A DNA stretch of 64,000 bases from Bdellovibrionales bacterium (lineage in GTDB: Bacteria; Bdellovibrionota; Bdellovibrionia; Bdellovibrionales; Bdellovibrionaceae): positions 83,246 to 147,245 of the forward strand of contig JANMPT010000077.1 in assembly GCA_031370005.1 (NCBI GenBank). The letters are read 5' to 3'. The first letter of the stretch is position 1. Every line of letters begins with the position of its first letter. The translations under genes were made by a program, and so were the position numbers. Of the stretch, positions 49,846-62,540 are shown piece after piece. Under the pieces are notes generated by a model that was given only the letters and a program-made list of their open reading frames with translations, did no database searches and was not told the origin of the DNA.

Positions 49846-50307
49846 TTACCCATTTACAACAAAAGAGTCTGAAGTAGATGAAATATCAAGTGCGGCAACT
49901 TTTGACGGAGCTTGAAATTCTTTAACCAAAGTCACTTCGATATTAAACTTACTCTTTTCTTTCTCTAAAATCTGATTGATAGCAAGAATTCGAAAAGCCT
50001 TTTCCTGCTCTAAACTTAGACCAGTAAAATCACCACCCTTATTTTCCCACGAACGAAGAGTTGAAGCTGGAATATGAATTTTTTCAGAAACCTCATCAAA
50101 CGACATCTTTAAATAGGTACGCAAAAATTTGAGCTGGTGTCCGGTAAGACGCTGCTTGCTGGTTAATAAAGCTTTCGCAGTATCAGTTTTTAATTCATTC
50201 ATATTGATGTTTGGGTACTCTTCACCATCAACTGATTTGATAGAAACGTCTTTAAGAATGATGTCGAATCCAAAGCCTTTGAATGTGTAAGTCTTTAATA
50301 TTTTCAT
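49846..50307 (-). CDS. XRE-HTH antitoxin-like protein (MqsA/YgiT-like)
   Basis: LTGHQLKFLRTYLKMS...STLRSWE HTH; lies directly downstream of DUF4258. Confidence 0.7.
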   Translation of the reverse strand: MKILKTYTFKGFGFDIILKDVSIKSVDGEEYPNINMNELKTDTAKALLTSKQRLTGHQLKFLRTYLKMSFDEVSEKIHIPASTLRSWENKGGDFTGLSLEQEKAFRILAINQILEKEKSKFNIEVTLVKEFQAPSKVAALDISSTSDSFVVNG

Positions 50308-50310
50308 GCT

Positions 50311-50625
50311 CTAGTCCTCCTTCTTGTTCTTATCAATTACAGTTACGATCACAGTGTCGGGGGCATTGAAAACAACAATAATTCTAATGTCCTTTTCTCC
50401 ACTATCGTTCAAGCCTCGCAAGGAATATTTCCAGTCTTTTTTATCTTTAGTCAGACTGTCTTTTGCCTCTTCCCTTTGAGCCCGGTAGATCATTTCCTCG
50501 ACATCGCTCATTTGCACATTACGCCTTTCCATCTGTTCTTGTGCGTGATTTGAAGGAACTAAGTTACCGGATTCAAGTGCCTTAATTACATCCTGTATTA
50601 CGTTAACACGTTTATCTATCGACAT
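50311..50625 (-). CDS. DUF4258 putative toxin
   Basis: SNHAQEQMERRNV..SDV and VIVTV motifs. Confidence 0.75.
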   Translation of the reverse strand: MSIDKRVNVIQDVIKALESGNLVPSNHAQEQMERRNVQMSDVEEMIYRAQREEAKDSLTKDKKDWKYSLRGLNDSGEKDIRIIVVFNAPDTVIVTVIDKNKKED

Positions 50626-50879
50626 AATACACCCTCTACTTTATCAGATTGCTGAAAAATGCGCAATTTATATATTAATATATTGTACTTTCAGTAACTT
50701 ACATAATAATCATACTTGTTTTTAAGCATATTTCTCACATTGAGACAGGCCTTTAGGGTATACATTTGAATATCTCCGTCGTAGTTTTCAGCTAGTAATA
50801 TAACATAGTTTTTCGAACCAATTCATGCGGTTTCTATTGGGATTTTAACCGCCCCCAGAAACTCCAACCAAATAAGCTC

Positions 50880-51097
50880 TGGCCTCTGGGATAATTTTAA
50901 AGTGCATTCTAAGATTTGCTGCAAACGCATTGCAACTACATCTTGAGTTTTTGGATCCACCAATAATTCAGCTTTTAAAAGATTTGAGGCCTTTGGCTTT
51001 TCTGCAAAGTCTAACTGTGAAATCTCCGCATTTGGGAAAATATCACCCCAATTTCCAGTATCCATTGGTATCCACACTTTCCCAAAACAGCCCAGAT
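50880..51097 (-). pseudogene. Internally deleted duplicate of the mnt-hepT module plus upstream flank
   Basis: Patchwork matching ~52580-52674, 52875-52920 and 53312-53391. Confidence 0.85.
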
Positions 51098-51237
51098 AGC
51101 GACTTAAGATGTCTTGGTTTGGGGCCGAGTCGGCTGTAGACTCACTTTTACCTTAAATTACCAAGCCACTCCTAAAGCGTGGCCCGAAAACGAATTCTTG
51201 ACATAGTGAATAATAGTGTAATATAGTGTGAATCACT

Positions 51238-51582
51238 ATGGCGGCTTTTAAGTTCATTCAGTGGCTTGTAGATTGGATTGAAAGTCAGCCCTATTTTGCG
51301 TTTGAATGGGACCTCGGCAATCGCACCAAGAACTTCATCAAGCACGAGATCACCATTGAAGAGGCTGAGTCGGTATTTAACCAGCCAGAGGCCATCAGGG
51401 CGCTGGGTGAGCAGGTAAGCCCCAAGGCGAATGAGCCAAGATACGGAATACTTGGTCTTACTGGCACCCTAAAGCATGTTTTCGTCTGTTTTACGATCCG
51501 TGGCTCTGGAATCCGATTCATCCACATTCGGAAAATGAACAAGAAGGAGAGGAGTCTTTATGCCGAACTATGTAAAGAATGA
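51238..51582 (+). CDS. BrnT family toxin
   Basis: FEWD.GN..KN..KH.I..EEAE.VF, IRFIHIRKM..KER..Y. Confidence 0.88.
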   Translation: MAAFKFIQWLVDWIESQPYFAFEWDLGNRTKNFIKHEITIEEAESVFNQPEAIRALGEQVSPKANEPRYGILGLTGTLKHVFVCFTIRGSGIRFIHIRKMNKKERSLYAELCKE

Positions 51583-51796
51583 AAAAGGCTATGCAAGCGT
51601 CAAGTTTAACGCCAAGGCTGTCAAGGATGCCTATTCCAAGGCTAAGACCAAGCGCAAACACCCTACGAGCGTCAACCTGCCCGAAGAAGTTATCACGGGT
51701 CTTAAGGCGTTGGCCTTGCAGCTGGAGGTCCCTTACCAGACCCTCATGCGCAAGTTCATCACAGAGGGCCTGGCTAAGAGTAAAAAAGGCGCTTAA
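51560..51796 (+). CDS. BrnA/CopG-type antitoxin
   Basis: TSVNLPEEVI..LK..A....VPYQTLM; overlaps the toxin end; GGAGAGGAG RBS. Confidence 0.85.
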   Translation: MPNYVKNEKGYASVKFNAKAVKDAYSKAKTKRKHPTSVNLPEEVITGLKALALQLEVPYQTLMRKFITEGLAKSKKGA

Positions 51797-51807
51797 CGGG
51801 AACTGCC

Positions 51808-52134
51808 ATGATCGAATTTACCAAGTCTGAAAAACGAGAGTTGCGCCGTCTGGCTGGCGACGCTTACAAAGCTGAGATGGAGAAAGAAGTCGCCAAACTT
51901 GAAGCTGCATTTAAGACATGGCGTGATGGCAAAATCACCGTCTTTGACTTAGATGAGCAAGTCCACGCCTATTATTCTGGTCCACGCAAACAACTCTATG
52001 CCTTCTACCAAATGCGGAACCAACCTGAAGCAGCAGTGGCGCGTGGTTTAGCAATGGGACTGATTGACGCTGTACAAGTGCCTACCGAAATAAAAGCAAA
52101 GATTGAGCACATGATTGGATTTTTCAAAAGGTAA
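51808..52134 (+). CDS. Hypothetical protein
   Basis: 108-aa helical ORF immediately after the antitoxin. Confidence 0.65.
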   Translation: MIEFTKSEKRELRRLAGDAYKAEMEKEVAKLEAAFKTWRDGKITVFDLDEQVHAYYSGPRKQLYAFYQMRNQPEAAVARGLAMGLIDAVQVPTEIKAKIEHMIGFFKR

Positions 52135-52220
52135 AGATCGGCACATGATTCCCTATTATCGACGTTTGGGCCTGAAACTCAAATCAAATAAATTTAGGTG
52201 ACCCATAAGCTCGGCTATGG
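52127..52220 (+). repeat. ~94-bp direct repeat, copy 1 (copy 2 at 58009-58102)
   Basis: 73-bp identical core 52137-52209 = 58019-58091. Confidence 0.9.
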
Positions 52221-52423
52221 GTTTCATTACATGGGTTGCATATATGCAACTCCACCCAAGAAATTTCCATGTAATCTAACCATTTGGGAAAATGTCAGCT
52301 CAATTTCCAGTAATCCTATGAAAATGGCCTCTTTTTTAAACCGGCGCGTGCACTTTAATAAGTAAATAATCGACATCAATGAATACGATCTCTCTCAGTA
52401 TACCAAAGGCCACTTTGTCTCAA

Positions 52424-52768
52424 TCAGCTATTCTTCCTCGCCCACTCGATAAGCTTTTCAAACTCTTCAAAGTCATTGATGACTTCCCAGACAATGGCGA
52501 CATCGACGTCAATATAGGAATGCGAGATCTTATTTCTCATTGCAACCAATGCCGACCAATTGATCTCTAACTTACCCCTGGCCTCTGTGGATAATTTAGA
52601 AGCGCATTCTAAAATTTGCTGCAAACGCATCGCTACTGCATCTTGAGTTTTTGGATCCACCATAAATTCAGCTTGAGAAATATCAGTTAAATATCTTTCA
52701 ACAAAACCATGTGCTTCTGAAATATTGCGATAGTATTCACGATCTCGTTCACTAGTACTAAAAGACAC
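52424..52768 (-). CDS. HepT-like (DUF86/HEPN) RNase toxin
   Basis: RNKISHSY = RX4HXY motif, DAV.MRLQ.I.E. Confidence 0.88.
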   Translation of the reverse strand: MSFSTSERDREYYRNISEAHGFVERYLTDISQAEFMVDPKTQDAVAMRLQQILECASKLSTEARGKLEINWSALVAMRNKISHSYIDVDVAIVWEVINDFEEFEKLIEWARKNS

Positions 52769-53258
52769 GGACTCCATCCTTTTCAATCTCGGCCATCAAT
52801 CGACGGCCTTTTTCCGATTCGAGCCAGCTTACTACGTCAACCTTAATTTCACCAAAGGCTTCAATCACCCGACCTTCAGCTTTTAAAAGATTTGAAGCCC
52901 TTGGCTTTTCTGCAAAGTCCAAATAGACGTCAATGTCAGAGCCCTCTTTATCCTCTTTCCTTGCCACTGAACCAAAAATGAAAACGTGGCGTACACCCAT
53001 GCCCTTTAGCTCTTTGCGCAAACGACCCAAAACATCTTTTGCAAAGGAAAGCCTTGGCGCTTGAGAGGGAATTAAGTCAGGTAAGATTTCGAGCTTAAAG
53101 CCGGCGGCCTTTGAAATCTTCTCTACGACTTCAAAGCTCGGGCTTATCGCTCCGGAATTCACGCGACTGATGGTCGATGGCGATAGCCCTGTTCTGCGGG
53201 CAATCTCCTTAACCCCGATTCTTTCAATAGCGGTACTTAACTCTTTCATTACTTCCAT
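52758..53258 (-). CDS. XRE-HTH + minimal nucleotidyltransferase (MntA-like) antitoxin
   Basis: N-terminal HTH (EIARRTGLSPSTISR), FGSVAR...SDIDV = GSX10DXD. Confidence 0.88.
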   Translation of the reverse strand: MEVMKELSTAIERIGVKEIARRTGLSPSTISRVNSGAISPSFEVVEKISKAAGFKLEILPDLIPSQAPRLSFAKDVLGRLRKELKGMGVRHVFIFGSVARKEDKEGSDIDVYLDFAEKPRASNLLKAEGRVIEAFGEIKVDVVSWLESEKGRRLMAEIEKDGVRVF

Positions 53259-53261
53259 GCC

Positions 53262-53295
53262 CTATACTACCACAGGTGGTTGCGTATACGCAACC
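53262..53295 (-). promoter_or_regulatory. Promoter and palindromic operator of mnt-hepT
   Basis: Perfect 18-bp palindrome GGTTGCGTATACGCAACC (53278-53295) overlapping TTGCGT...TAGTAT. Confidence 0.7.
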
Positions 53296-53512
53296 CCTAA
53301 GGAAATTCCCCTGAAATCTCCGCGTTTCGGAAAATATCAGCCCAATTTCCAGTATCCACTGGTATCCACACTTTCCCAAAACAGCCCAGATCAAGAACCA
53401 ACAAAACGGACCAAGCTGAAAACACTAACCTACTGAAATAAATAGATTAAGCGCGAAAATACGGGTCGTTTTTGTGACTTAGTTAAATCGTTAAAAATGC
53501 CTATGGGATGCT

Positions 53513-53560
53513 CTTTCACGGAGGATACAGGGGTTCGAATCCCCTTGGGAACGCCAAATT
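53513..53560 (+). repeat. attR-like duplication of the tRNA-Glu 3' half
   Basis: Identical to 48435-48482. Confidence 0.92.
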
Positions 53561-53620
53561 ACTCTTCGATCTTTTTCCACTTTGGCTCTTCTCACTTAAC
53601 AGTTTATCACGAAGCGCATT

Positions 53621-53715
53621 CTAGTAAAAACAAGCGTTTAGTGTTTTCAAACGATAGTTTACAAAGTTTCTAAAGCGTCTCGCCCCTCTCTGGAGGGCTT
53701 TTATACTGCTCCCAC
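53621..53715 (-). mobile_element. ISL3-family transposase C-terminal scar
   Basis: IKALQRGARRFRNFVNYRLKTL resembles the ISL3 IK..KR.AYGFRN..N.R.RI terminus. Confidence 0.5.
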
Positions 53716-53749
53716 ATAACTCGCTGACAGCGCCCTCCGAGGGTTTGTC

Positions 53750-53950
53750 AGCAAGATTACAGAATCCTGATATCGCTCGGTCGATCAGCGCAAGGTCTGC
53801 GGGGCGATCCATATTAATGGTGAGCGGCATCGACGATTCCAAAAACTGATCAACGCTGAAATAGAAATAAGGCTCGGGAAGCTGATTTAAAAGCGCCTTC
53901 GCTGTTGTCGTCTTTCCGGAGCTTGAAGTTCCATTTAACAATATGATCAT
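53750..53950 (-). pseudogene. Chloramphenicol phosphotransferase (CPT)-like kinase, N-terminal fragment
   Basis: MIILLNGTSSSGKTT.AKAL...L.EPY..FSVDQF; truncated after ~65 aa. Confidence 0.7.
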
Positions 53951-53966
53951 GAGAAGCAATACCTTT

Positions 53967-54227
53967 CTAATCCGTTTTGACCTTCAAAGCTCTTTCCACT
54001 TTCTCAAGTCTTTGTTCAAGACTCTCGTGTTTCATGACGGCTTCGCGCAAAAGATGGTTCATCAAAGTTTGATACTTTGCGCCTTCTTGATCCGCTTTAT
54101 CCTTCAACATCAAAATTAAATCTGCATCAAACCACGAGGTCACTTTTATCTTTGTTGTCTTCGGGTCGAATGGGTTCTCGGGAACTTCGACTTTCCCGTA
54201 TTTTATCTTACTTGCTTTGCGTTTCAT
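53967..54227 (-). CDS. BrnA/CopG-like antitoxin
   Basis: D.DL...LK.KA...G.KYQTLMN..LR; GGAGG RBS. Confidence 0.75.
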   Translation of the reverse strand: MKRKASKIKYGKVEVPENPFDPKTTKIKVTSWFDADLILMLKDKADQEGAKYQTLMNHLLREAVMKHESLEQRLEKVERALKVKTD

Positions 54228-54468
54228 ACCAATCCTCCAAAAGTCTCTTTTGATAAGGGCGTAAAGACTTAATGATTTCATTCACGGCTTTTTCGCTGAA
54301 TCCAAAACCGTCTAGAACTTCAAAATTATCGATGCGCACTTTTACTTCAGCCTCGGGCCGTTTTCCTGAACCTTTCCGCACAACAAGATGGGGATGCCCA
54401 TGATCTTTGTAGTAGAGGTAGGCCGTTAATCCAGAAAGTATGTTTAATAGATACTCAATCCGAGGCAT
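54208..54468 (-). CDS. DUF4160 family putative toxin
   Basis: MPRI...YLYYKDHGHPHL.V...LLEDW. Confidence 0.75.
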   Translation of the reverse strand: MPRIEYLLNILSGLTAYLYYKDHGHPHLVVRKGSGKRPEAEVKVRIDNFEVLDGFGFSEKAVNEIIKSLRPYQKRLLEDWYETQSK

Positions 54469-54827
54469 AGTTTACTATGCCATACTTTGTATGTATATGT
54501 CAATATTTTCATCGGATTCGTTAGGAGAGGCTACGGAGGCATAATTTCGGTAGAACAGGGAGAACTGTTCTACCTCCGGAGAACCGCCTCGGCGCTGCCC
54601 CTTTGCTCTCCACGGCGGCTATGGTCGTAACCATGGCAAATGTGAACCAGGTGGAAAAGATGTCAAGGTGGGGATTTGAAGATTTCTCGCAATAGAGTTT
54701 AGGACATCGCGCCAAGTATGACAAAACTCTTAAGCGATGGTTCACGCTTACCCGCCAATGCCGCACGACGCAGAAGCTCTGCTCGCTCTCAACGCAAAAT
54801 AGATCGCAAGTTTATCATCTAGCCCTG

Positions 54828-54858
54828 TTGACCTTGCCGTTACGTCAAGCCCCATGAT
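54828..54858 (+). promoter_or_regulatory. MerR-type promoter with 19-bp spacer and dyad operator
   Basis: TTGACC (54828-33), 19 bp, CATGAT (54853-58); dyad CTTGCCGT-t-ACGTCAAG (54833-49). Confidence 0.85.
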
Positions 54859-54883
54859 GAAATCAATGGGAAGGAATTCAAAG

Positions 54884-56419
54884 ATGCTCTCGATTGGAAA
54901 TTTCGCAAAATCAGCCAAAGTCTCTGCGCGCACCGTAAGGCATTACGAGTCTATCGGGCTTTTGCCAATATCCTCTCGTAGCGAAAACAATTATCGCCGC
55001 TACGACCAAAAATGGCTTGAACGGATGAACCGCATTCGAGATCTGCAAAGCTTGGGATTTAGTCTTGAAGACATCAAGATAATCATCAACTTTTCGGATT
55101 CTGAATTAAAGGTTCGTCTTGATGGGCGACTTTTGGAAATAGAACAGGAAATTGAAAACCTCGAAGAGCGCCGAGAGCGTGTGAAGAATCTCCTTTCCGT
55201 CTCAAATAAAATTGAAACAGGTGAAACTCTCACCGCATCGGAAAGGAATCTCTACATGGACAGTATAAGAGAAGAAGTCATGAGCGGCTTGCGCAGTCGC
55301 TACAATGAGGTCACGGATTTAGCGGTCGCTTATTTAAAGCGAGATACATGGCTCGATATTCACCCTCAAGTAGGAGAATTTATCGAGGCCGTTAAAAAAT
55401 GTATGGATTTTGCGAAAAGCAAAAAACTCACGTTAGGAACAGCACGAGGAAGTTCGCCAGCTAGCATGTCCTTTTTTGGACTCGGCTTCTCACTCGTTGA
55501 TCCCTTAAAATATGAAATGATTCCTGAGAGACTTTCAACTCAGGCTCCTTTCTTTCATATCGATGTCGAGTATGAACGCGGACAAGAATTCGTCGATTTT
55601 TGCCGTGAAATGAATAAGTCACTGACTTATGGAGAAATTCAGGCATTCAAAATGCCATTGATCGATGTCGTCCAAAATACCCACAGAGCTATTGGCAAAA
55701 TCATTAATTACGATGCGATTGAGGACGACTCGGAGACAGTTTTGAGTCCCTTCAAAAATGGCGATCTAGAAAAGATATTTCAGTTCGACTTTTCAGAAGA
55801 CGCTCTCGTTATGAATTACGAGCGATTTTTGCCTGAATACCGGGGGCTTAATAAAATTACCGAGTGCTTTAAAGGCCAGCGGGTTTTCAACTTCAGAGAC
55901 ATTATCAATATCACCGCACTTTGGCGTCCGCATTCGCAAGAAATTGTAGACAGAATTAATCTGTACCGCGAAGCCAAAGCGAAACCGTTTTCTTATGACT
56001 TTCTTTCAGAAAAAATCGAAGCTTGGTTGAAGCCAAATTATGGGGTCATCATTTATCATGAAGATATCTTAAAAATAGTATCCGAATATACGGGGTGGGA
56101 TTTTGCGAGAAGCAACTCCCTCCGACGAGCTTGCATGAATAAAAATAAAATCGCTCAACGTAATCAGGACGCGAACTGGATTGAGTTCCAAAAAATTGCG
56201 CCCAAGCAAGTTGTTGAACTCGTAGGTGAGGAAAGTAAGTGGGCCTTCTGCCTCCCCCATGCCATTGCTTTTGCCAAGTTTACGAAGCAAACGGCGGTTT
56301 TAAAGACTTTGCACAAAGAAGCTTACTTTGCGGAAATTCAAAACTTTGAACAAAAGCATGGGTTCAAATGGGATGACATCGGAATTCGCATTAATGGCGT
56401 TTCTCTGCATCAAGGATAG
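54884..56419 (+). CDS. MerR-family regulator fused to an inactive DnaE (Pol III alpha) palm/fingers-like domain
   Basis: MerR HTH (IGNFAK..KVSARTVRHYESIGLL...NNYRRY) plus coiled coil, then DnaE-like ARGSS, VDPLKY...ER, IFQF, ALWRP, YGVIIYHE, LRRA, AFC.PHA, QTA.LK motifs; AAGGA RBS. Confidence 0.85.
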   Translation: MLSIGNFAKSAKVSARTVRHYESIGLLPISSRSENNYRRYDQKWLERMNRIRDLQSLGFSLEDIKIIINFSDSELKVRLDGRLLEIEQEIENLEERRERVKNLLSVSNKIETGETLTASERNLYMDSIREEVMSGLRSRYNEVTDLAVAYLKRDTWLDIHPQVGEFIEAVKKCMDFAKSKKLTLGTARGSSPASMSFFGLGFSLVDPLKYEMIPERLSTQAPFFHIDVEYERGQEFVDFCREMNKSLTYGEIQAFKMPLIDVVQNTHRAIGKIINYDAIEDDSETVLSPFKNGDLEKIFQFDFSEDALVMNYERFLPEYRGLNKITECFKGQRVFNFRDIINITALWRPHSQEIVDRINLYREAKAKPFSYDFLSEKIEAWLKPNYGVIIYHEDILKIVSEYTGWDFARSNSLRRACMNKNKIAQRNQDANWIEFQKIAPKQVVELVGEESKWAFCLPHAIAFAKFTKQTAVLKTLHKEAYFAEIQNFEQKHGFKWDDIGIRINGVSLHQG

Positions 56420-56424
56420 ATACC

Positions 56425-56463
56425 TTTACACAATATACATAAATTCTATGTATATTGTGTAAA
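56425..56463. repeat. Perfect 17-bp inverted repeat
   Basis: TTTACACAATATACATA-aattc-TATGTATATTGTGTAAA. Confidence 0.85.
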
Positions 56464-56556
56464 CTTGGAAAAGCGGCGAATAAACCTTAATTTCACCAAA
56501 GGCTTCGAAACTTCTACTCGAAGCGCCTTCCAGAGTGTTTCATACCCAAAATTATA

Positions 56557-56593
56557 CCAATCTTACCCAGTTACTAGGTTTGGGTAAGATTGG
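56557..56593. repeat. Perfect 13-bp inverted repeat
   Basis: CCAATCTTACCCA-N11-TGGGTAAGATTGG. Confidence 0.8.
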
Positions 56594-56630
56594 CGGACAA
56601 ACTCTTTTAGCCTCGTCGCAGATGACCCAC

Positions 56631-57857
56631 TCATGGCACCGAACAAGAATCCTTTAGAATGTCGATAATACTATTAATATCACCCTCCTTTTTGCCATCT
56701 CTGAATTCGAGTTTTAAAATGCCAGAACTGATCTCCTTTGGACCGACAATTAATTTGGCAAAGGGCCGATACTTATGCGCAAACAAGACCCGCTTTGATA
56801 GAGAGCCTTGACTTTCGTCAACCTTGGCCCGAATCCCAGCTTTCATAAGCGCCTTATGAATTTTTCGACACTCGTCACTTTCTCGATCAGACAAAGGCAA
56901 CAGCATCACTTGAATTGGCGAAAGCCACCCGGGCAGTTGGCCGTCAAAATACTCCAATAGCAGAGCAACAAATCTCTCGTGACTGCCCAGGGGGGCTCGA
57001 TGAATGATCCACGGACGCACTTGTTCGCCAGATCTTGCCGAATAGGCGAGACCGAATCTCTCTGCTGACAAAAAATCAAGCTGAACACTGGCAATAGATT
57101 CCTCTTGGCCCGAACCCATTTTCATTTGCACATCAATTTTCGGTCCATAAAATGCGGCCTCTCCGACGTCCTCAAAAAATTCAAGTCCTCGCTCTAATAA
57201 TGCCTTTCTTAAAATAGATTCTGCCTCGATCCATTTGCAGTCCTCCCCTTGAAAGTCATTTGGCCTTGACGGGTCCCGAAGCGACAGACGATAGCGATAT
57301 CCCTTCAGGCCCAACTTTTTGTAACACTCTTCGTGCAAATCCAAGACACAGAGCACTTCTTTTAACGAGTCCCCTGGATCAACATAAATATGGGCGTCGT
57401 TTTGACAAAGCCCGCGCACACGACTTAGCCCACGAAGTGAGCCACTCGGCTCAAATCTGTAAACTTGGCCGTACTCAGCAATTCTTAACGGCAAATGACG
57501 GTAGCTTCTTGGCAGCGCAGAAAAAACCTTGTGATGATGGGGACAGTTCATCGGCTTCAGATAGAAACTTTTTTTGTCCTCATCTCCTTCTTTTTGCCAA
57601 TGAATCGGCGGATACATGTTTTCATTAAAACAACTTAAGTGACCCGACTTCTCGTAAAGGTCTTGACGCCCAAGATGTGGACTCACCACTCTCTGGTATC
57701 CCCCCTGACGCTCAAGTTCTTTAACAAAAATCTCTAACTGGTCACGAATGGCGACTCCATTTGGCAGCCACACCGGCAAGCCCGCGCCGATCTCCTCGTC
57801 AAAGAAACAAATCTCCATTTCATCGGCCAACTGCCGATGATCAAACTGATAAGACAT
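56631..57857 (-). CDS. thrS: Short threonyl-tRNA synthetase (catalytic + anticodon domains; no TGS/editing domains)
   Basis: Begins at DHR; KPMNCP, YRFEPSG.L.GL.RVR, NDAH, GEAAFYGPKID, IHRAPLGSHERF; GAAGGGA RBS. Confidence 0.9.
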   Translation of the reverse strand: MSYQFDHRQLADEMEICFFDEEIGAGLPVWLPNGVAIRDQLEIFVKELERQGGYQRVVSPHLGRQDLYEKSGHLSCFNENMYPPIHWQKEGDEDKKSFYLKPMNCPHHHKVFSALPRSYRHLPLRIAEYGQVYRFEPSGSLRGLSRVRGLCQNDAHIYVDPGDSLKEVLCVLDLHEECYKKLGLKGYRYRLSLRDPSRPNDFQGEDCKWIEAESILRKALLERGLEFFEDVGEAAFYGPKIDVQMKMGSGQEESIASVQLDFLSAERFGLAYSARSGEQVRPWIIHRAPLGSHERFVALLLEYFDGQLPGWLSPIQVMLLPLSDRESDECRKIHKALMKAGIRAKVDESQGSLSKRVLFAHKYRPFAKLIVGPKEISSGILKLEFRDGKKEGDINSIIDILKDSCSVP

Positions 57858-58008
57858 AAGAATTCCCTTCAGATGCAAATCCAAAAAAAGATTAAACGCA
57901 TCAATCAAAAATAAATTTCGCCAAAAAATAATATTTGTTGGTCCCGTGCTCGGGACAAAACGATCTATGGACCCCTATGGGGTGGTTTGAAAGGCGCTAG
58001 AATAAAAG

Positions 58009-58468: not shown

Positions 58469-58858
58469 TCAAGAAACCCGCTTATCTGCCAAATCAAAAT
58501 CCACAAGAATTCGATCGTAGAGTGCCATCGGCTTCAACCGCTCGCGTCCTTGCACTAATTTTTTCTGCAGCTTAATGAGACCAAGGCTTTCAAGCACTCG
58601 GACTTCTTTTGAAACGTAACTCAAATCGCGATCGAAAAGTTTCGCAAGGTCATAGACTGACTCTGGATGTTCCTCGTGGATGAGGCGAAAGAGGTGCAGA
58701 CGATTTTCAGTCGCAACCGTAAGAAGTGCTTTTAGCGAAGACGATCTGATCTCATCTTTTTCAATATGGGGTTTGCCGGACTTTGCAGCCTTGAGCATTT
58801 GATCCATCGAACCTTTCACCGTCGCCTTTGGATCGTAACGAAATGTAAACGTTTTCAT
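58469..58858 (-). CDS. wHTH protein (HVO_A0114-like), putative antitoxin
   Basis: T.NRL.L...I....PESVYDLAK...RD...VSKEV..LE..GLI...L.P...YD. Confidence 0.7.
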   Translation of the reverse strand: MKTFTFRYDPKATVKGSMDQMLKAAKSGKPHIEKDEIRSSSLKALLTVATENRLHLFRLIHEEHPESVYDLAKLFDRDLSYVSKEVRVLESLGLIKLQKKLVQGRERLKPMALYDRILVDFDLADKRVS

Positions 58859-59134
58859 CTATACCTCCACACTTGCACCGAAGTGTTTCTTAATCGCGCC
58901 GGCAAAAAAGTCGCGAACGTCTTCTAGCGTTTCAGCTTCAACCGGCTCTTGCTGTCCACCATCATAATGCACATGAACTCCGAAAGGCTGATGGCAATCG
59001 ACGAGAACCCGCCGCATTGGATTTTCTATCTCAAAGAAAATCCAGCTGAAGCGAAATCGGTCGAGAAAGAGGCCCTTCGCCTTTCCTTTACCCACACCGA
59101 ACAAATCCATATGATTTAGTCTAGGTCGGTACAA
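58859..59134 (-). CDS. DUF6516/TumE-like putative toxin, 5' end possibly truncated
   Basis: RFSW...RVLVDCHQPFGVHVH motif; translationally adjacent to the wHTH gene. Confidence 0.55.
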   Translation of the reverse strand: MYRPRLNHMDLFGVGKGKAKGLFLDRFRFSWIFFEIENPMRRVLVDCHQPFGVHVHYDGGQQEPVEAETLEDVRDFFAGAIKKHFGASVEV

Positions 59135-59185: not shown

Positions 59186-60139
59186 TTAACAAATTTTTAA
59201 AACATCCATCTCTTGGCACTTTTCCCTATGCAGTTCTGGGGGAAGATTTTTTAAAATAGCCTCTTTGATAGCCGCAGCCATTTTTCTTCGCCACTGGGTT
59301 CGTCGTCCAACAAGGCTGACCTCGCGACCCGGTGAAGGAATTTTAAAACCACGAACATGTGCTTGAACTTCGGCCTGAGACATTTGATGAATCATGAAGG
59401 CGGGCAAAAGCGTGTAGCCAGTCCCTTTCCTGATGAGTCGAAGCAAGGTATCTAAATTGCCACCTTGAAATTTTACTTTGGGCATTCGTCCCAATTCATT
59501 TGGCTCCAACGAGCAAATTTGAGCAATCTGGTCCTTAAAACAATGTCCATCTTGTAAAAGCCAGAGGTCTGATGCGTCTAGGTCTCTAACCAAGCAATTC
59601 TTGTTCTTCAGCAATTTATGTCCTTTGGATGCGTAGATATAAAAAGGTTCATAAAAGAGAGGTTCCTCTACGAGATGCCCCAACTCCAGAGGAGTCACCA
59701 TCAATGCGGCATCAAGGCGATCCTCTTCTAGCGCCTTTAAAATTGCGCCAGTTTTTAGTTCGTCAACAATAAGAGTAACTTGAGGATGTGATTTAGAAAA
59801 CTGGTGAAGGAAATGCGGTATCAGAGTGCTTGCTAGAGTTGGTATAACACCAAGCCGAAACTCACCGGCGATCTCATCAGACTTTTGATGTGCAATATCT
59901 TTAAGCTTCTTGTGTTCTTTCAGTATCAGCCTTGCTTGCTTTAGAAGAGCTTCGCCCTCCGCTGTCACTACGAGAGGTTTCTTGACACGATCAAAAATCA
60001 CGGTATCTAAAGTTTCTTCTACTTTTCTCACTTGCTGGCTCAAAGTAGGCTGAGAAATATGACAAGCCGCTGCCGCCTTGCCGAAATGTCTTAAATCAGC
60101 TACCGCAACAATATACTCCAACTGGACTAAACTTGGCAT
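59186..60139 (-). CDS. oxyR: H2O2-responsive LysR regulator OxyR
   Basis: LysR HTH, LLQDGHCFKDQIAQIC with C-X8-C redox pair, divergent from katG. Confidence 0.9.
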   Translation of the reverse strand: MPSLVQLEYIVAVADLRHFGKAAAACHISQPTLSQQVRKVEETLDTVIFDRVKKPLVVTAEGEALLKQARLILKEHKKLKDIAHQKSDEIAGEFRLGVIPTLASTLIPHFLHQFSKSHPQVTLIVDELKTGAILKALEEDRLDAALMVTPLELGHLVEEPLFYEPFYIYASKGHKLLKNKNCLVRDLDASDLWLLQDGHCFKDQIAQICSLEPNELGRMPKVKFQGGNLDTLLRLIRKGTGYTLLPAFMIHQMSQAEVQAHVRGFKIPSPGREVSLVGRRTQWRRKMAAAIKEAILKNLPPELHREKCQEMDVLKIC

Positions 60140-60158
60140 GCCGACTCCGCGTGTTTTA

Positions 60159-60194
60159 ATAGCTTTAAACTATACATTGATTGAAACTATCGAA
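60159..60194. promoter_or_regulatory. Putative OxyR binding site
   Basis: ATAG-N7-CTAT-N6-ATTG-N7-CGAA between oxyR and katG. Confidence 0.6.
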
Positions 60195-60257
60195 TATACA
60201 TTTCAATTACTTTTATGAAACATAGTGAGGAAGGTCAAATATTAATTGAAAGTTTAA

Positions 60258-62540
<2,283 letters not shown>

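Follow-up and report, generated by a model that had tools for sequence, protein, structure and literature searches.

A MerR–DnaE fusion gene of Bdellovibrionota with a conserved internal start that very probably yields two proteins, the shorter a catalytically dead DnaE core

The window, meaning the whole 64,000-nt stretch of DNA analysed here, carries on its forward strand an open reading frame (ORF) at 54884–56419 that translates into a 511-aa protein according to the ORF list. An N-terminal MerR head, composed of a helix-turn-helix (HTH) and a dimerisation coiled coil, is joined to a domain derived from DnaE, the α subunit of DNA polymerase III (Table 1). Pfam assigns residues 128–297 to the DnaE palm family PF07733 and residues 333–433 to the DnaE fingers family, so that the two families recognised on this DnaE-derived cargo are PF07733 and PF17657. 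The AlphaFold model of the protein has a pLDDT of 91 and shows a new helix at residues 118–139 following the coiled coil at 72–112.

Table 1 Features of the MerR–DnaE gene and its upstream region, in window coordinates
Feature	Position	Strand	Basis
Putative MerR-type promoter: −35 TTGACC (54828–54833), 19-bp spacer, −10 CATGAT (54853–54858)	54828–54858	+	Homologue comparison; function predicted
Putative operator dyad CTTG(C/T/A)CGT-N-ACGTCAA(G/A) in the spacer	54833–54849		Usually one site per genome, before the MerR–DnaE gene
Long-form Shine-Dalgarno (AAGGA) and start codon	54871–54886	+	Sequence; Met at this column in 111/121 proteins; SD motif in 29/34
Long form, 511 aa: MerR HTH, coiled coil and DnaE-derived domain	54884–56419	+	Pfam, AlphaFold model, structure superposition
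MerR helix-turn-helix, residues 3–68	54890–55087	+	PF13411, E 1.6e-16
Dimerisation coiled coil, residues 72–112	55097–55219	+	AlphaFold helix 72–112; PF09278
Predicted anti-SD TCCTTTCCG, codons L103–V106, predicted pairing with 55239–55247	55191–55199	+	Folding, synonymous randomisation
Small inner hairpin GGTGA/TCACC within the anti-SD loop	55220–55234	+	75.5% of cells paired
Internal Shine-Dalgarno AAGGA, codons E120–R121–N122	55243–55247	+	Conservation; anti-SD tail CACCTCCTTT in relatives' 16S genes
Predicted short form, 387 aa, from Met125	55256–56419	+	Sequence, alignments, structure match
R188-G189-S190, GS motif (E. coli R362-G363-S364)	55445–55453	+	Alignment
F223-x-H225-x-D227 in place of D401-x-D403-x-D405, two catalytic aspartates gone	55550–55564	+	Register test, counts
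Q253 at the position of D555, the third catalytic aspartate, directly after the thumb deletion	55640–55642	+	Asp in 0/121 and 0/18
H459, steric-gate His (E. coli H760, M. tuberculosis H787)	56258–56260	+	119/120 near, 18/18 far

All named relatives of the protein are from Bdellovibrionota, and they include a named isolate, Bdellovibrio sp. HCB2-146 (locus L089 of our set). The distribution is patchy: a survey of 384 genomes from the order found the gene in 43, and one of 401 from the phylum found it in 22. Every intact genomic copy encountered is fused to MerR. No conserved neighbour gene emerged from 85 of the 120 listed flanking ORFs scanned across 45 loci. The PADLOC defence-protein models gave no match to the cargo, with the HTH alone matching mad1; an Rfam scan of 54300–56700 gave no match, and searches of viral contigs with queries A3 and P0162 found no relative. 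Convergent with the gene on the reverse strand (56631–57908) is a second threonyl-tRNA synthetase copy of 425 aa that lacks the N-terminal part, shares 35% identity with the full-length enzyme encoded on contig C61 and is not conserved as a neighbour. Small toxin-antitoxin-like pairs (HEPN/nucleotidyltransferase with HTH, DUF4160, BrnA-like and others) cluster at 49846–54468 and 58469–59134, with a short chloramphenicol-phosphotransferase-like ORF among them (53621–53959), which suggests an accessory island. Farther downstream, at 59186–62540, is a putative LysR regulator divergent from a putative catalase-peroxidase-like gene.

A second candidate start lies at the junction of head and cargo. 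The site GAAAGGAATCTCTACATG at 55241–55258 places AGGA (55244–55247) 8 nt ahead of an ATG at 55256 that is in frame with the long ORF, encodes Met125 and leaves 387 aa to the stop. The motif is exactly where the sequence-only reading had placed it, and that reading had rightly seen in it a mirror of the main start, where AAGGA (54871–54875) is followed after 8 nt by the ATG at 54884. It had also put the site exactly where the coiled coil ends and the DnaE-like part begins; in the AlphaFold model, however, residue 112 is the last of the coiled coil, and Met125 falls 13 residues beyond it, within the first helix (118–139) of the DnaE-like part. PF07733 starts at residue 128. The 16S rRNA tail that would pair with the Shine-Dalgarno (SD) sequence, CACCTCCTTT, was read in three loci of relatives.

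Judged from a single genome, the internal SD motif would be weak evidence. Taking stop-to-stop frames of at least 300 aa as a proxy for genes, we collected 12,207 internal in-frame ATGs from 1,425 frames of the window's genome; AGGA, GGAG or GAGG occurs at −16 to −5 of 5.4% of these, and 4.0% have an SD energy as strong as the one observed here. Since the gene has 10 internal Met codons, chance alone would be expected to produce a site of this kind about one time in three. We therefore turn to homologous loci for the assessment. From 93 loci first fetched, 32 duplicates and 4 that did not cover the junction were removed and 2 were set aside, as a break puts the junction in another frame segment, leaving 55 loci in 28 groups at 70% identity. 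An ATG stands at the junction in all 55. The arginine four codons upstream of it is encoded by AGG in 54 of 54 loci, compared with 99 of 1,642 (6.0%) of the other Arg codons in the same genes and 6.2% of Arg codons genome-wide, and the codon that follows it begins with a purine in 55/55 although the encoded residue varies widely. An SD motif is found at 52 of the 55 junctions, the remaining three pairing at −5.3 kcal/mol or better, and before other conserved Met columns it occurs in 0/24, 0/35 and 3/31. The 55th locus (L067) has Lys instead of Arg and retains the SD tract as AAG GAG. Both set-aside loci also retain the tract, L068 with ATG and L051 with GTG, and among seven loci fetched later five have AGG, with L137 and L138 reading AGA GGA G, a shifted SD. 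Over the distinct DnaE-fusion junctions, the SD tract is thus present in 64/64 and AGG in 61/64, bearing in mind that these junctions are kin and the counts are not independent trials. The tract is retained down to 23% protein identity.

At the protein level, Met occupies the internal-start column in 120 of 121 near relatives. P0053 has Leu there, predicted to be encoded by TTG. Met is absent from the aligned column in nine distant MerR-DnaE-like representatives, two of which have a Met nearby, so the short form would not be universal. Gene callers chose the equivalent of Met125 as the start in four database proteins (P0066, P0083, P0133 and P0161), which may be free genes or broken fusions. 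Some genomic copies contain a stop or frameshift (L012/L085, L051, L018, L019, L068, L091), possibly including sequencing errors; the break in L012/L085 and L019 precedes the internal start, so that the short frame stays open. On these comparisons the internal SD-start is a genuine signal on which selection acts at the level of DNA. The proposal of a short isoform resembling TipAS and AlbAS, for which conservation of the ribosome-binding site (RBS) and Met in homologs had been put forward as a check, is strongly supported by the conserved SD, AGG codon and start codon. It is highly probable that ribosomes initiate at Met125 as well, giving a short isoform, and hence one gene very probably makes two proteins in these predatory Bdellovibrio-type bacteria.

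The internal RBS is predicted to be occluded by an upstream anti-SD, which counts against assuming an abundant short form. In the window the segment 55191–55199 is the exact complement of 55239–55247 (z −2.6), and the unpaired probability of the internal SD is 0.16 in a 120-nt folding window, versus 0.37 for the main start and 0.39 across 129 ordinary starts with AGGA. An earlier impression of an open start region, from a short-window folding profile, was overturned by this longer window. In the near group Leu104 is encoded by CTT in 33/37 loci and Ser105 by TCC in 30/37, and in 36/37 the pairing outdoes the average over 200 synonymous randomisations (p ≤ 0.05 in 28). In the far loci it exceeds the randomised mean in 20/25, with p ≤ 0.05 in 8; a count over 18 loci of the far group gives 5. 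The named helix is paired in 81% of cells, with slight two-sided covariation, and RNAalifold returned no consensus structure on 40 sequences. The partner strand shifts register between groups (−74, −63, −60/−57), while the distance from SD to start is constant. The inner hairpin may be largely a consequence of the coded residues. Translation of the short form is probably coupled to that of the long form, with ribosomes from the first start melting the stem; the short form would then be made only from translated messages.

The region upstream of the gene suggests self-regulation. A MerR-type promoter precedes 37 of the 55 homologues (at most 3 mismatches), its first five bases invariant and its consensus −10 being (T/C)ATG(G/A)T; most far members have a different dyad. 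Our consensus promoter scan, limited to 16–18 nt spacers, missed this 19-bp promoter and gave no telling internal promoter within that spacer range. Allowing two mismatches, the operator is found before the MerR–DnaE gene in 17 of 20 genomes, and only three other hits turned up, of which two lie ahead of other MerR genes and one is within an ORF. For the window's genome, the gene's own operator scores 49.5 bits, versus 26.1 for the orphan promoter of a sister gene and at most 10.1 for all others. TipA-like autoregulation is thus strongly supported by the comparative evidence, and it is very likely that a dimer of the long form binds the dyad in its own promoter as its only strong target, with weaker regulon sites possible. 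As the visible output of such a loop is more of the same gene, the product itself must be the effector. Over 47 nt the orphan promoter (G000:C85:1442-1488) matches that of the sister gene in locus L170, of the MurD type described below, at 89% identity; the sister gene was not found in the window's assembly, and a transposase-like ORF lies just downstream of the orphan promoter.

The predicted short form consists of the DnaE palm and fingers and is without the PHP, thumb, clamp-binding, OB and tau-binding parts. Superposed as an AlphaFold model on PDB entry 7pu7, the cargo gives Z 32.7 and an rmsd of 3.0 over 350 residues, and across DnaE structures (7pu7, 2hnh, 2hpi) Z is 29–33 over about 350 residues; identity to the host DnaE is only 27%. 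A QxxLF-like clamp-binding motif occurs in 2 of 121 proteins, and the cargo family has a new conserved C-terminal tail. The earlier suggestion of a pseudo-DnaE was right: F223, H225 and Q253 stand in place of the catalytic D401, D403 and D555. Asp is absent from the D403 and D555 positions in all 121 near and all 18 far proteins and lost from the D401 position in most, being present there in 24 near and 2 far proteins. An Asp-to-Lys metal mimic, considered at one stage, was dropped once the catalytic register had been corrected. The equivalents of R362, G363, D405, D630, E688 and H760 are retained in both groups, with the Arg and Gly of the GS motif in 121/121 near and 18/18 far proteins and its Ser in 107/121 near proteins and replaced in the far group. 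R390, R639, R709 and an aromatic at Y754 are retained mainly in the near group, and the equivalents of R390, S364, Y754 and R709 are degraded in the far group. In DnaE the retained residues surround the incoming dNTP (bioRxiv 2026.06.29.735100; PMC8485763), and the H760/H787 residue acts as a steric gate (PMC8922275; bioRxiv 2026.06.29.735100; PMC8485763). The alignments and the model thus show a domain that cannot polymerise and is devoid of replisome-docking parts, yet retains the nucleotide pocket's core.

Thumbless proteins resembling DnaE also occur free of any fusion (P0155, P0162, WP_013283142.1 and ESM Atlas clusters of 356–369 aa), so the palm-fingers unit can stand alone. They share with the cargo the palm and fingers, the thumb gap and a similar length; unlike the fusion they have no MerR head, and some retain catalytic Asp; the likeness may reflect descent or parallel deletion. 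The loci of this kind include L115:3746-5188. A thumbless gene on a Butyrivibrio plasmid is flanked by a dnaX-like gene and an AAA ATPase and has a DnaA/Hda-family gene nearby; it was the one thumbless gene in the plasmid and phage records searched, which otherwise yielded only ordinary DnaE genes.

A sister family of about 340 aa combines a related MerR head and the same internal SD-start with a different cargo, derived from MurD. Here the Arg codon is AGG in 29/29 loci (8.9% of other Arg codons), with ATG as the start in 27 and TTG in 2; 15 further loci have 13 AGG and two shifted tracts, bringing the signal to 44/44. A profile of the cargo, the MurD central domain, matches one protein of the window's genome, MurD itself (E 6e-21); Pfam and NCBIfam gave weak Mur matches, and a profile search of PDB sequences found nothing. 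In the cargo the P-loop Lys is replaced. The sister family also has a predicted anti-SD, and its pairing exceeds the randomised mean in all but one of the 41 loci that were anchored correctly (40/41; p ≤ 0.05 in 27). Two rows with a wrong anchor were left out and one locus was not found. In several complete genomes the MurD-type loci (L143-L175, L181-L191) lie about 11.5 kb from the record start.

Related MerR heads carry yet other cargos. In those with a short helical cargo (L113:1517-2221, followed in L113 by a methionine aminopeptidase-family gene, and L176-L180) the internal start is absent in 6/6. A further fusion, L111:1553-2635 (L142), joins a MerR head with a similar operator to a Lon N-terminal (LonN) substrate-binding domain; it has a Met at the junction without an SD and was seen as one copy among 182 genomes searched. 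Mapped onto an unrooted tree of 55 heads, the DnaE label must have changed three times or more along branches with good support, so cargos were exchanged among related heads. The idea that the internal start is older than the DnaE fusion was dropped, as the unrooted tree does not allow such ordering; the start may have arrived with the head or with an early cargo.

Could the internal site be something other than a working start? The sequence-only reading had itself offered another view, a relic start left from the ancestral fused gene; as a neutral relic, the site would date from a gene that was later joined to a MerR head. The position of the site at the beginning of the DnaE-derived part, the existence of free thumbless DnaE-like genes and the room that an unrooted head tree leaves for such an origin would all suit it. 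However, four-fold sites are saturated (0.28–0.31 identity in pairs below 60% protein identity), yet the AGG Arg is the sole invariant synonymous site among 53 well-conserved columns; a neutral signal could not have outlasted this saturation. The same start is moreover retained with the unrelated MurD-derived cargo, and we regard a neutral relic as refuted to within a residual chance of very small size. It is also quite improbable that no second protein is made and that the purine tract and its partner act instead as an mRNA stem or a ribosome pause at the domain boundary, with Met125 being structural. The conservation of the stem in the near group, the location of Met125 within a helix and the SD-less Met of the LonN fusion speak for such a reading, but the SD is better conserved than its partner and holds its distance to the start while the partner moves. 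In addition, where the Met codon is substituted it has become GTG or TTG, each of which can also serve as a start (about two independent events), and the rare AGG itself is dispensable (L067, L137, L138, L174).

The logic appears to be that of TipA and AlbA with an enzyme-derived cargo. TipA of Streptomyces lividans uses two start codons to make TipAL and TipAS, activates its own promoter and has been described as a minimal autoregulated system (PMC7762955). In common with the TipA/AlbA-type two-isoform systems (TipA being grouped with SkgA and Mta), the protein has a MerR HTH and a coiled coil, an in-frame second start at the boundary of head and effector giving a long/short-form design, here read from sequence, and its own promoter with a 19-bp spacer and dyad, at which binding and activation are predicted. 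The position of the start is similar too, TipAN ending at residue 109 (PMC7762955) and the short form here beginning at Met125. In contrast, the TipAS domain PF07739 is not matched, the cargo being 387 aa of DnaE palm and fingers, and the MerR–DnaE protein is thus not a TipA-class member in the strict sense. In AlbA of Klebsiella oxytoca, AlbAS begins with residue 128 and comprises nothing but the ligand domain, the promoter likewise has a 19-bp spacer, and the motif ACNCTNACG spanning the −35 end resembles ACCTTG(C/T/A)CG here (PMC6078987; bioRxiv 2026.09.21.753095). AlbAS, as portrayed in the same sources, forms a tandem TipAS-like tunnel made wholly of helices and bears no relation to gyrase, the target of the drug, whereas the cargo here descends from an essential enzyme; the available portions of these sources describe no anti-SD in albA. 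A DnaE homologue beside the nargenicin cluster, NarR/NgnU, has been suggested as a self-resistance decoy (PMC8922275); compared by description only, it differs in lying within a producer's biosynthetic cluster, and the part of that source at hand describes neither a MerR fusion nor a second start. Searches of the open-access literature listed no description of MerR–DnaE or MerR–MurD fusions. New here are the upstream anti-SD, the near-single-copy operator, the thumbless DnaE cargo without catalytic Asp and the MurD sister family.

The best explanation of the whole, to which we assign a probability of about 0.55, is a self-inducing sensor and sink of TipA/AlbA design made from a dead copy of an essential enzyme. 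It would work as follows: (i) A dimer of the long-form MerR protein would sit on the dyad of its own 19-bp-spacer promoter, its sole strong target. (ii) Initiation also at Met125 would yield a 387-aa protein free of DNA-binding and dimerisation parts. (iii) The anti-SD would close the internal RBS until ribosomes from the first start, crossing codons 103–106, open it. (iv) As sequence and model show, the domain of this protein cannot polymerise and is without the parts for docking in the replisome, but retains the core of the nucleotide pocket. (v) The short form would bind the same ligand as the long form, remove it and damp the loop. (vi) The ligand would be an agent against the nucleotide pocket of DnaE. 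The parts differ in strength. A role of the short form as a ligand sink is reasonably likely, and a free copy of dead DnaE may soak up whatever attacks the real enzyme; that the ligand is an inhibitor directed at the nucleotide pocket we propose tentatively. A small molecule or a compound resembling a nucleotide is a better candidate for it than a protein. Counting against the explanation are the far group's degraded equivalents of R390, S364, Y754 and R709 and the identity of only 27% to the host DnaE. Nargenicin, considered as a candidate, is very doubtful, since it binds DnaE only with DNA (PMC8922275), the cargo has no thumb, and of the drug's three contacts two are not kept family-wide. 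The contacts Q638, R667 and H787 of M. tuberculosis correspond to Q300, R348 and H459 in the window protein, the Gln being mapped by motif; the Gln is present in 66/120 near proteins, and the Arg in 115/120 near but 4/18 far proteins. Nargenicin is also weak on the Gram-negative polymerase (PMC8922275; PMC11762266).

Two other roles for the short form were weighed. It could buffer a cellular nucleotide, an alarmone or a damaged or odd dNTP and so set the threshold of the switch, a reading with some appeal given that the retained residues line the dNTP site, that the sister cargo also comes from a nucleotide-binding domain, the MurD centre, and that AlbAS and TipAS have been discussed as negative regulators of their own loops (bioRxiv 2026.09.21.753095). 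We nevertheless consider it unlikely: the patchy, context-free distribution is what one would sooner expect of an accessory defence gene than of housekeeping control, a loop with itself as its only output would do little against an abundant metabolite, and the metal ligands that hold the triphosphate are gone, as is the P-loop Lys of the MurD copy. Somewhat less likely still is that the short form has become a new enzyme, such as a hydrolase or transferase that detoxifies the inducer, rather than a stoichiometric sink. The palm is a Pol-beta-type nucleotidyltransferase fold (bioRxiv 2026.06.29.735100), and family-specific polar residues do surround the old site (H225 in 119/121, E229 in 116/121, Lys or Arg at K256 in 121/121, together with D227 and D394), but all three metal-binding Asp are lost in the window protein, H225 is replaced by Trp in 14/18 far members, and the likewise degraded sister cargo suits binding more than two separate new chemistries.

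Known two-isoform MerR sinks use dedicated drug-binding folds, whereas the sink proposed here would be an inactive copy of an essential enzyme. The same head on at least two dead enzymes suggests a reusable way of turning a vulnerable target into both sensor and shield, and the conserved anti-SD offers a testable means of fixing the ratio of long to short form. More speculatively, and with somewhat less than even odds, Bdellovibrionota may possess a modular integrated-decoy cassette, in which a self-inducing MerR head and a structure-gated internal start serve exchanged dead DnaE or MurD cores, each gene sensing attack via the dead copy and releasing that copy as a decoy. To our knowledge, DnaE and MurD are sought-after antibiotic targets for which few natural inhibitors are known. 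If the decoy-cassette reading is true, the cargos are signs that nature holds inhibitors of DnaE and MurD still to be discovered, and each promoter is a ready reporter for finding them; a promoter that reports ligand binding to the dead cores would make the search for such inhibitors directly testable.
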